Sequence record: PV654397.1
Source of the DNA: Escherichia phage WPEC5
Strand: one strand, 5' to 3'
DNA: 64,000 nt
Shown: in pieces, positions 36,609 to 37,469 of the stretch
Layout of the letters: the number at the start of each line of letters is the position of its first letter
Numbering within the stretch: position 1 is the stretch's first letter
Notes under the pieces: model-generated
What the model was told of the DNA's origin: nothing
The model's input: only the letters and a program-made list of their open reading frames with translations
The model's database searches: none
Translations under genes and position numbers: made by a program

Positions 36609-37469
36609 TCAAAAGAATATCTCTCTTAGTAAGTGTGATATAACTGGCATAGTCCATCCATTCCCAAGCATTTTGTATGCTTGTGTCTTACTAGACACTT
36701 TAAAGAAATCTACAGGAATACCCTGTAATTTACAACATTCTACTACACTTAAGTGTCTATAGTCAATATTTCTTTTACCATTCTCCAATAGATATTGACG
36801 ATTAATCGTTGGGTCACGAAACACCAACTGTCGTCTTGATTTATTAAAGTACTGGTTACAATCACCACCCTTAAAATAGTTAGCATCTATACAGTACGAA
36901 GCGGTTCTGTCAGTGTACCAACCATCTTCAATGATATCTTGAAGTTTAGGGGCATTTGATAATGCAGGTGGTATAAAAAGCTTATCAGTACTGCACCAGT
37001 AGTATCTCTGCCTGAAGTGAGGCGTATAATGCTGGGAATTTATCAGTACTGGTGTGATTCCTAAAATACTATTAATGTATTCTTTGAAATCTTCCTTCAT
37101 TTTAACATTCTCGAACAGAAATTGCAAGTTTGGATTTACACTTTTGATGTGCTCAAAAATATCAACCATAACCAAAAATAACTGTCCACGTATATCATTC
37201 AAGCCACCTTGCTTACCAGCAACAGACCAGGCTTGACATGGGAATCCTCCCATGAGTAAATCTATCTTATCCCACTCAATATCCCATTCTTTCCACTTAG
37301 TCACATCACCTAACTGGATAATATCAGGAAAATTCTCGGAAGATTCAGCAATTGCGTACTTGTCAATTTCAGATGAGTAATATTTTTCAACTGGAATACC
37401 TGCATCTGCCAATGCCATATATCCAACGCTCATTCCATTAAAAAGTGACAGTACTCTGATAGGTTTCAT
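36609..37469 (-). CDS. DNA (cytosine-5)-methyltransferase
   Basis: C5-MTase motifs in order: LSLFNGMSVGYMAL (motif I), GGFPCQAWSVAG (PCQ, motif IV), FENV (motif VI), RQRYYW, LGNGW. Confidence 0.85.
   Translation of the reverse strand: MKPIRVLSLFNGMSVGYMALADAGIPVEKYYSSEIDKYAIAESSENFPDIIQLGDVTKWKEWDIEWDKIDLLMGGFPCQAWSVAGKQGGLNDIRGQLFLVMVDIFEHIKSVNPNLQFLFENVKMKEDFKEYINSILGITPVLINSQHYTPHFRQRYYWCSTDKLFIPPALSNAPKLQDIIEDGWYTDRTASYCIDANYFKGGDCNQYFNKSRRQLVFRDPTINRQYLLENGKRNIDYRHLSVVECCKLQGIPVDFFKVSSKTQAYKMLGNGWTMPVISHLLREIFF

Follow-up and report, generated by a model that had tools for sequence, protein, structure and literature searches.

A DNMT3-like orphan C5-cytosine DNA methyltransferase of Escherichia phage WPEC5, conserved among RaK2-like jumbo phages, in a genome rich in an AGTACT-centered palindrome

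Several described systems bear on the subject of this study, a C5-cytosine DNA methyltransferase gene at positions 36609 to 37469 of a 64,000-nucleotide stretch of Escherichia phage WPEC5 (sequence record PV654397.1), which in its full length is called the window below. The bacterial enzymes M.HhaI (GCGC) and M.HaeIII (GGCC) are built from ten ordered motifs and paired with a restriction enzyme, the DNMT3 family possesses PWWP and ADD domains, and viromes abound in phage genes that KEGG assigns to "DNMT3A." M.Ssp6803I is an orphan C5 methylase that, according to Elhai (2015), methylates the core of the cyanobacterial highly iterated palindrome HIP1, GCGATCGC. Among phages, gp194 and gp447 were named putative methylases in the RaK2 paper, and in the papers on CBB, phAPEC6, and Sharanji a C5 methylase and one or two N6-adenine methylases are listed, which are presumed to be protective. 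The gene is thus already known, annotated, conserved in its clade, and in itself ordinary, and calling it once more adds nothing new, as identical GenBank entries exist and four papers on related phages have already read a protective methylase.

There is little doubt that the gene product is a genuine C5-cytosine DNA methyltransferase. The original prediction of a Dcm-type enzyme, made from the letters of the window, is borne out by sequence profiles, by the invariance of the catalytic residues, and by the fold of a structure model. The open reading frame (ORF), which has the same orientation (minus strand) as nearly all neighboring genes, matched PF00145 ("C-5 cytosine-specific DNA methylase"; E = 4.7e-37, 128.6 bits against a cutoff of 22), TIGR00675 dcm of NCBIfam (117.2 bits against a cutoff of 100.65), phrog_116 ("DNA methyltransferase"; E = 1e-58), and the "Type II MTase" and "orphan MTase" models of PADLOC. 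The gene and the motifs of its product, an S-adenosylmethionine (AdoMet)-dependent enzyme by family, are arranged as follows.

36609..37469, minus strand: C5-cytosine DNA methyltransferase coding sequence, 286 aa, stop codon included; ATG-initiated ORF with matches to PF00145 and TIGR00675
37422..37442, minus strand: motif I, AdoMet-binding loop F10-N-G-M-S-V-G16 (residues 10-16) of the DNMT3-type FxGxxxG form; F10 and G12 invariant
37233..37250, minus strand: motif IV, G-G-F-P77-C78-Q (residues 74-79) with the catalytic cysteine; P77 and C78 invariant; read directly from the sequence
37104..37112, minus strand: motif VI, E120-N121-V122; invariant in 46 homologues; read directly from the sequence
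37005..37013, minus strand: motif VIII, R153-Q-R155; R153 and R155 invariant
36762..36992, minus strand: compact target-recognition region, approximately residues 160-236, with the family-conserved SYCIDANYFKGGDCNQYFNKSRRQLVF; from alignments
36714..36761, minus strand: motif IX region, Y-R238-H-L-S-V-V-E244-C-C-K-L-Q-G-I-P; R238, L240, and E244 invariant
36654..36665, minus strand: motif X, G269-N-G-W272; G269, N270, and G271 invariant; read directly from the sequence

The motifs stand in the canonical ten-motif order without permutation, i.e., I-IV-VI-VIII-target recognition-IX-X. In an alignment of 46 homologues with identities down to 49%, the residues F10, G12, E34, P77, C78, E120, N121, V122, R153, R155, and G269-N-G271 were invariant. 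The original observation is confirmed well outside the range of chance, and its motif set needs correction only in its details: the order and the literal PCQ (residues 77-79), ENV (120-122), and GNGW (269-272) stand, and a target-recognition region of about 80 residues (156-237) does lie between motifs VIII and IX. The postulated FxGxG is not present literally, motif I being FNGMSVG, which aligns with LFDGIATG of DNMT3B. Likewise, the RxR of the postulated QxRxR is intact, but its leading Q, which is kept in most homologues, is replaced by H in this protein (HFRQR, residues 151-155).

Two observations concern the surroundings of the coding sequence. At 36604-36657, the downstream gene is annotated as sharing 49 nt with the methylase gene (ATG at 36657), and an in-frame ATG two nucleotides past the methylase stop codon (TGA-AC-ATG, around 36604-36611) would offer an alternative, translationally coupled start. 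A sigma-70 promoter scan for a promoter of the methylase gene itself was uninformative (18 sites versus 17.4 expected).

An AlphaFold2 model computed on the 46-sequence alignment (mean predicted local distance difference test score, 91.6; predicted template modeling [TM] score, 0.89) shows the class I fold of AdoMet-dependent methyltransferases together with a small domain for DNA recognition. In a Foldseek search of the model against the PDB, all of the top 50 matches were catalytic domains of mammalian DNMT3A, DNMT3B, or DNMT3C (TM score, 0.73 to 0.80; identity, 27 to 28%). Sequence searches against solved structures agreed with this result, with DNMT3B (E = 1e-23, residues 2-282) ahead of M.HhaI (7e-17) and M.HaeIII (1e-15). 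The DNMT3 enzymes, the best match in sequence and structure, share the FxGxxxG form of motif I and the short target-recognition region with the phage protein, whereas their PWWP and ADD domains are absent from it (286 aa with the PF00145 domain alone) and their PCN is replaced by PCQ. With M.HhaI and M.HaeIII it has the ten-motif architecture, the catalytic mechanism, and the size class in common, but in contrast to them it is unpaired. The protein is accordingly a compact DNMT3-like C5 enzyme without regulatory domains, and it belongs to a populous family, with more than 8000 relatives in the protein database, many of which are 270 to 300 aa long.

A different assignment, either to a DNMT2-like tRNA methyltransferase or to an enzyme that opens a pathway of cytosine hypermodification (5-methylcytosine [5mC], TET-type oxidation, and glycosylation), is very improbable. 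One GenBank record does name an orthologue "DNMT2," and RaK2-like phages have many tRNA genes, but DNMT2/tRNA-methylase structures were matched with E values of only 1e-9 to 1e-6, i.e., far more weakly than DNMT3 or M.HhaI. Moreover, the methylase sequence contains no CFT tripeptide, a motif typical of DNMT2. Phage TET enzymes that act on methylase-made 5mC are known (PMC8256090), but no TET or JBP family was detected in a Pfam sweep of the 113 ORFs of the window (15 families at E <= 1e-4), and the TET-type pathway was rejected on this ground. TET/JBP was also reported in none of the 224 jumbo phages of a published survey, and the normal cutting of fEgEco12 DNA by ten enzymes, described below, counts against hypermodification as well.

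The second claim of the original prediction, that the methylase is an orphan with no nuclease nearby, is supported by the domain scans of its neighbors, as none of the five ORFs on either side had a nuclease match in Pfam or PADLOC. The locus hence lacks the adjacent cognate endonuclease that is the mark of a type II restriction-modification (R-M) system. The Pfam sweep retrieved topoisomerase II subunits, a clamp loader, a sigma factor, TelA, an exoribonuclease-like domain, and, as the single DNA endonuclease family, PF11645; a second methylase, a Vsr, or a TET family was not among the hits. Together with a targeted scan, three nuclease ORFs were located in the window, 11 to 16 kb away from the methylase.

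25372-25785: PD-(D/E)XK endonuclease ORF, 137 aa; PF11645 (I-Ssp6803I-type homing nuclease family), E = 8e-22
20326-20736: weak HNH ORF from the targeted scan
22523-23077: weak HNH ORF with a NUMOD3 motif from the targeted scan

These ORFs invite the alternative that the methylase guards the DNA not against host enzymes but against a phage-encoded nuclease, be it the other half of a dispersed R-M-like pair or a degrader of host DNA, and the type I and type III restriction-like genes that the Sharanji paper reports from elsewhere in that genome could be seen in the same light. The distance to the methylase and the nature of the ORFs make this improbable. The PD-(D/E)XK ORF is an insertion in place of 94 bp of the closely related phage fEgEco12, and a search of 50,697 phage records gave no match to it of at least 60% identity. 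This marks it as a homing-type element of sporadic occurrence, whereas the methylase is universally conserved in its clade. Its candidacy as the cognate nuclease, or as a partner of the Vsr kind, was rejected on the grounds of the insertion and the missing matches. Both HNH ORFs are weak, homing-type matches and likely represent free-standing homing endonucleases. For all three ORFs, the role of a conserved methylase partner is excluded.

The conservation of the methylase itself extends over all RaK2-like jumbo-phage genera that were sampled. Over positions 36000-38200, the sequence is that of Escherichia phage fEgEco12 (PP777464.1; 100% identity), a 375-kb Asteriusvirus and RaK2-like jumbo myovirus, in which the gene is g455 (XBS49537.1, annotated "DNA methyltransferase"); the window as such, at 99.2 to 99.8% identity and with one insertion or more, comes from a close relative and not from fEgEco12 itself. 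A tblastn search located orthologues with 63 to 100% identity in 53 phage records. They are present in Asteriusvirus, including 121Q (gp91), PBECO4, phAPEC6, G17, and Sharanji; in Alcyoneusvirus, i.e., RaK2 (gp194, confirmed as an orthologue), K64-1, and Muenster; in Mimasvirus, i.e., GAP32, CBB (CBB_399), and XbC2; and in the Erwinia phages Hallingskeid and Kaldavass. Identity ranges from 100% in fEgEco12, Ecwhy_1, BF17, and WPEC3 to 63% in RaK2 and K64-1. As in the window, the orthologues are of equal length, set among small hypothetical genes, and without an adjacent nuclease; RaK2 gp194 differs in having PCT instead of PCQ and a catalytic loop that is eight residues longer. The "HaeIII" labels attached to orthologues in GenBank, e.g., "HaeIII-like" for WNN14532.1 of Sharanji, were assigned by similarity alone.

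Some Asteriusvirus alleles contain an intein. In phage UE-S1, the orthologue is a 626-aa open frame (601-2481 of the stretch examined) with a Hint+LAGLIDADG intein at residue 77/78, right at the catalytic Pro-Cys motif, and in TH47, JNE01, ph0011, and A4 the tblastn alignments break at residue 78 as in UE-S1. An intein that occupies the active site while the frame is kept open argues for a functional and conserved enzyme.

The explanation that we regard as probable in its entirety is an active orphan C5 methylase with an anti-restriction role. In this jumbo coliphage of the RaK2-like genus Asteriusvirus, the protein would act as a stand-alone, AdoMet-dependent DNA (cytosine-5) methyltransferase that flips its target cytosine out of the helix, attacks C6 with Cys78 of the PCQ motif, and transfers the methyl group to C5. 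Replicating phage DNA would thereby be methylated at a short site of probably about 4 bp, and the most likely benefit would be that the marked sites escape cutting by host restriction enzymes. Such phage genes are commonly read as a defense against restriction by the host, which is also the most likely reading here. It fits two reports, both given as data not shown in the RaK2 paper, namely, a resistance of RaK2 DNA to methylation-sensitive enzymes and bisulfite evidence of 5mC in CpG context.

Restriction sites are also conspicuous by their absence from these genomes. GCGC does not occur in the 64-kb window, in which about 59 copies are expected, and is equally missing from the 150 kb of K64-1 examined. 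Upward of 20 palindromes of six bases, including GGATCC, CTGCAG, GGTACC, CGTACG, and GAGCTC, have zero copies in the window, and GATC, CCGG, and CGCG are strongly depleted. These gaps represent an extreme restriction-site avoidance, which exists beside the palindrome excess described below.

Two points weigh against an active protective methylase. The main anti-restriction strategy of the phage may be site avoidance rather than methylation, in which case the benefit of the enzyme would be unclear. The second point comes from restriction digests. C5 methylation blocks SmaI, ClaI, and NruI in CpG context, SexAI in Dcm context, and HindIII at AAG(m5C)TT. For virion DNA of fEgEco12, whose methylase is identical, digestion matched the in silico prediction with each of ten enzymes, among them the five just named, and methylation must therefore be absent at those sites or incomplete. 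The full digestibility would also accommodate an inactive relic, an idea that deserves hardly any credence: the catalytic residues are all intact and invariant across at least four genera, the intein-bearing alleles hold the reading frame open, and RaK2 DNA reportedly contains 5mC.

The digests narrow down the candidates for the target of the putatively protective enzyme. Complete methylation of CG, CCGG, CGCG, TCGA (in ATCGAT), CCWGG, or AGCT is unlikely in view of the cutting of fEgEco12 DNA, and the activity of SmaI, ClaI, and NruI on it speaks against the CpG specificity of DNMT3 for the phage enzyme, while the 5mC reported for RaK2 was in CpG context. GCGC is not a relevant target because this site is absent from the genomes. 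In the literature, neither a published target sequence for the clade-wide methylase nor a methylome of Asteriusvirus phages was found. Specificity could not be borrowed from relatives either. The phi92-type (Justusliebigvirus) and ICP1-type methylases are 44 to 50% identical and share CIDANYxKGGxxxQYFxKSRRQ of the recognition region, but they possess about 45 extra residues in this region, and their specificity is for that reason not transferable. Deduction of the target from bacterial R-M neighbors was likewise rejected, as the homologues from a contig scan were at most 52% identical over their full length, mostly derived from metagenome-assembled genomes, and too distant. Knowledge of the target would help to foresee by which restriction systems these jumbo coliphages, which are of interest for therapy, are held back.

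The original prediction had considered the target worth determining in view of an enrichment of AGTACT, and the enrichment proved to be stronger than it had stated. The element in question is the following.

1..64000, without strand: CAGTACTG, 40 copies; its core AGTACT, 165 copies, of which the methylase gene contains 4; possible substrate context

Dinucleotide-preserving shuffles of the window yielded 17.3 +/- 4.2 copies of AGTACT. The 8-bp palindrome CAGTACTG, which has a GTAC core, is the top 8-mer of the window and about 60-fold over-represented (0.67 copies expected), and AGTACTG was observed 158 times versus 7.6 expected. There is thus about one CAGTACTG per 1.6 kb and one AGTACT per 390 bp, the latter evenly spread with 19 to 26 copies per 8 kb; the sites inside the methylase gene are at 36848, 36987, 37045, and 37450. 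With respect to the reading frames, the AGTACT sites are distributed 63/28/49, and 25 are intergenic. The occurrence in all frames and between genes makes this a DNA-level signal, and a codon or peptide explanation was rejected on the same evidence. In comparison with a relative of 82% identity, 63.5% of the AGTACT sites were conserved, versus 38% of all or of composition-matched hexamers and 39 to 50% of the flanking hexamers.

The excess is not peculiar to WPEC5. CAGTACTG is the top or a near-top 8-mer in K64-1 (63-fold), XbC2 (44-fold), and EJP2 (113-fold), all of which carry the orthologue, and three separate 50-kb regions of K64-1 showed 46- to 63-fold enrichment. One-base variants of CAGTACTG have observed-to-expected ratios (O/E) of 12 to 15 at positions 1/8 and 6 to 9 at positions 2/7, but only 1 to 3 within GTAC, a pattern common to all four genera. 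The more distant relative PA5oct has no enrichment of AGTACT (3 copies versus 17 expected). No mention of CAGTACTG was found in the papers on RaK2, CBB, phAPEC6, Sharanji, and fEgEco12, and a literature search returned nothing relevant. An interest in the target on account of AGTACT is therefore reasonable, the enrichment being real and clade-wide. In phi92 (positions 1-50000), whose methylase is 50% identical, the situation is the opposite of the RaK2-like pattern: AGTACT is avoided (0 copies versus 17 expected) and GCGC kept at a normal frequency. The complete lack of AGTACT points to restriction directed at this word as a force acting on coliphages.

The most direct connection between enzyme and palindrome would be that the methylase is the cognate modifier, methylating the cytosine of the GTAC core in CAGTACTG/AGTACT. 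The enzyme would then shield a site every 390 bp or so against host enzymes of the ScaI/RsaI type, or else it would serve a HIP1-like marking, and perhaps maintenance, of the palindrome. We consider this link possible but rather unlikely. In its favor are the size of the excess in the window and in the three other orthologue carriers, the frame-independent and well-conserved sites, the restriction of variant enrichment to the outer positions, and the lack of enrichment in PA5oct, whose paper names no methylase. A genome so rich in GTAC and AGTACT ought to need protection, and the zero count in phi92 suggests that the restriction pressure is real. An orphan m5C methylase co-occurring with HIP1, M.Ssp6803I, provides a precedent (Elhai 2015).

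Against this connection stands phylogeny. The co-occurrence of methylase and palindrome in four of the four RaK2-like genera sampled represents a single clade and is confounded by common descent, and the absence of a methylase from PA5oct is taken from the paper alone. The N6-adenine methylases, of which there are one or two per phage, are equally good candidates for GTAC/AGTACT. Furthermore, the bisulfite note in the RaK2 paper refers to CpG context, but neither cytosine of CAGTACTG precedes a G. A Vsr ("very short patch") signature was considered and rejected, as AGTATT and AATACT, the deamination products of AGTACT, are not depleted (O/E, 0.81 and 1.22, respectively) and no Vsr family turned up in the Pfam sweep of the window.

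The resemblance to HIP1 goes beyond the excess as such. Like a palindrome of the HIP type, CAGTACTG is an 8-bp palindrome with tens-fold genome-wide over-representation, a DNA-level signal, and tolerance of change at the outer positions. For HIP1, Elhai reportedly found the same outer-position pattern of variants. Both systems thus combine an orphan C5 methylase with a hugely over-represented in-gene palindrome of 8 bp that occurs in any frame and varies at its outer positions. They differ in that HIP1 belongs to cells and CAGTACTG to a virus and is AT-rich, and in that methylation of the HIP1 core by M.Ssp6803I is established, whereas a link of the phage enzyme to CAGTACTG is hypothetical. 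By analogy, the RaK2-like phages might harbor the first viral counterpart of HIP, with a DNMT3-like methylase acting on the GTAC core of CAGTACTG and a function at the level of the genome, a proposal that is more doubtful still than the cognate modification on which it builds. If it were true, the methylated palindrome could be a mark of self-DNA or an aid to methyl-directed repair, packaging, or recombination, and its role would reach beyond escape from one restriction enzyme. The total avoidance of GCGC together with a 60-fold excess of CAGTACTG is in any case hard to explain by restriction avoidance alone. The question of the origin and role of cyanobacterial HIP1 dates from 1995, and if the methylase does write on CAGTACTG, these phages would offer a small and tractable model for the origin and role of highly iterated palindromes.

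The methylase gene of the window is also flanked on both sides by members of a large family of paralogous ORFs, about 130 to 180 aa in length. The family members are located at about 17500-20300, 24341-24724, 27093-27635, and 35569-41867 (e.g., 38576-39034, 39404-39823, and 41436-41867). They share a C-proximal motif, E-E-x-F-F-Q-x-S-(T/L)-(V/I)-x-D, of which a strict pattern recovers at least 11 copies, and the F-Q|S core of this motif resembles the cleavage sites of 3C/TEV-type proteases.

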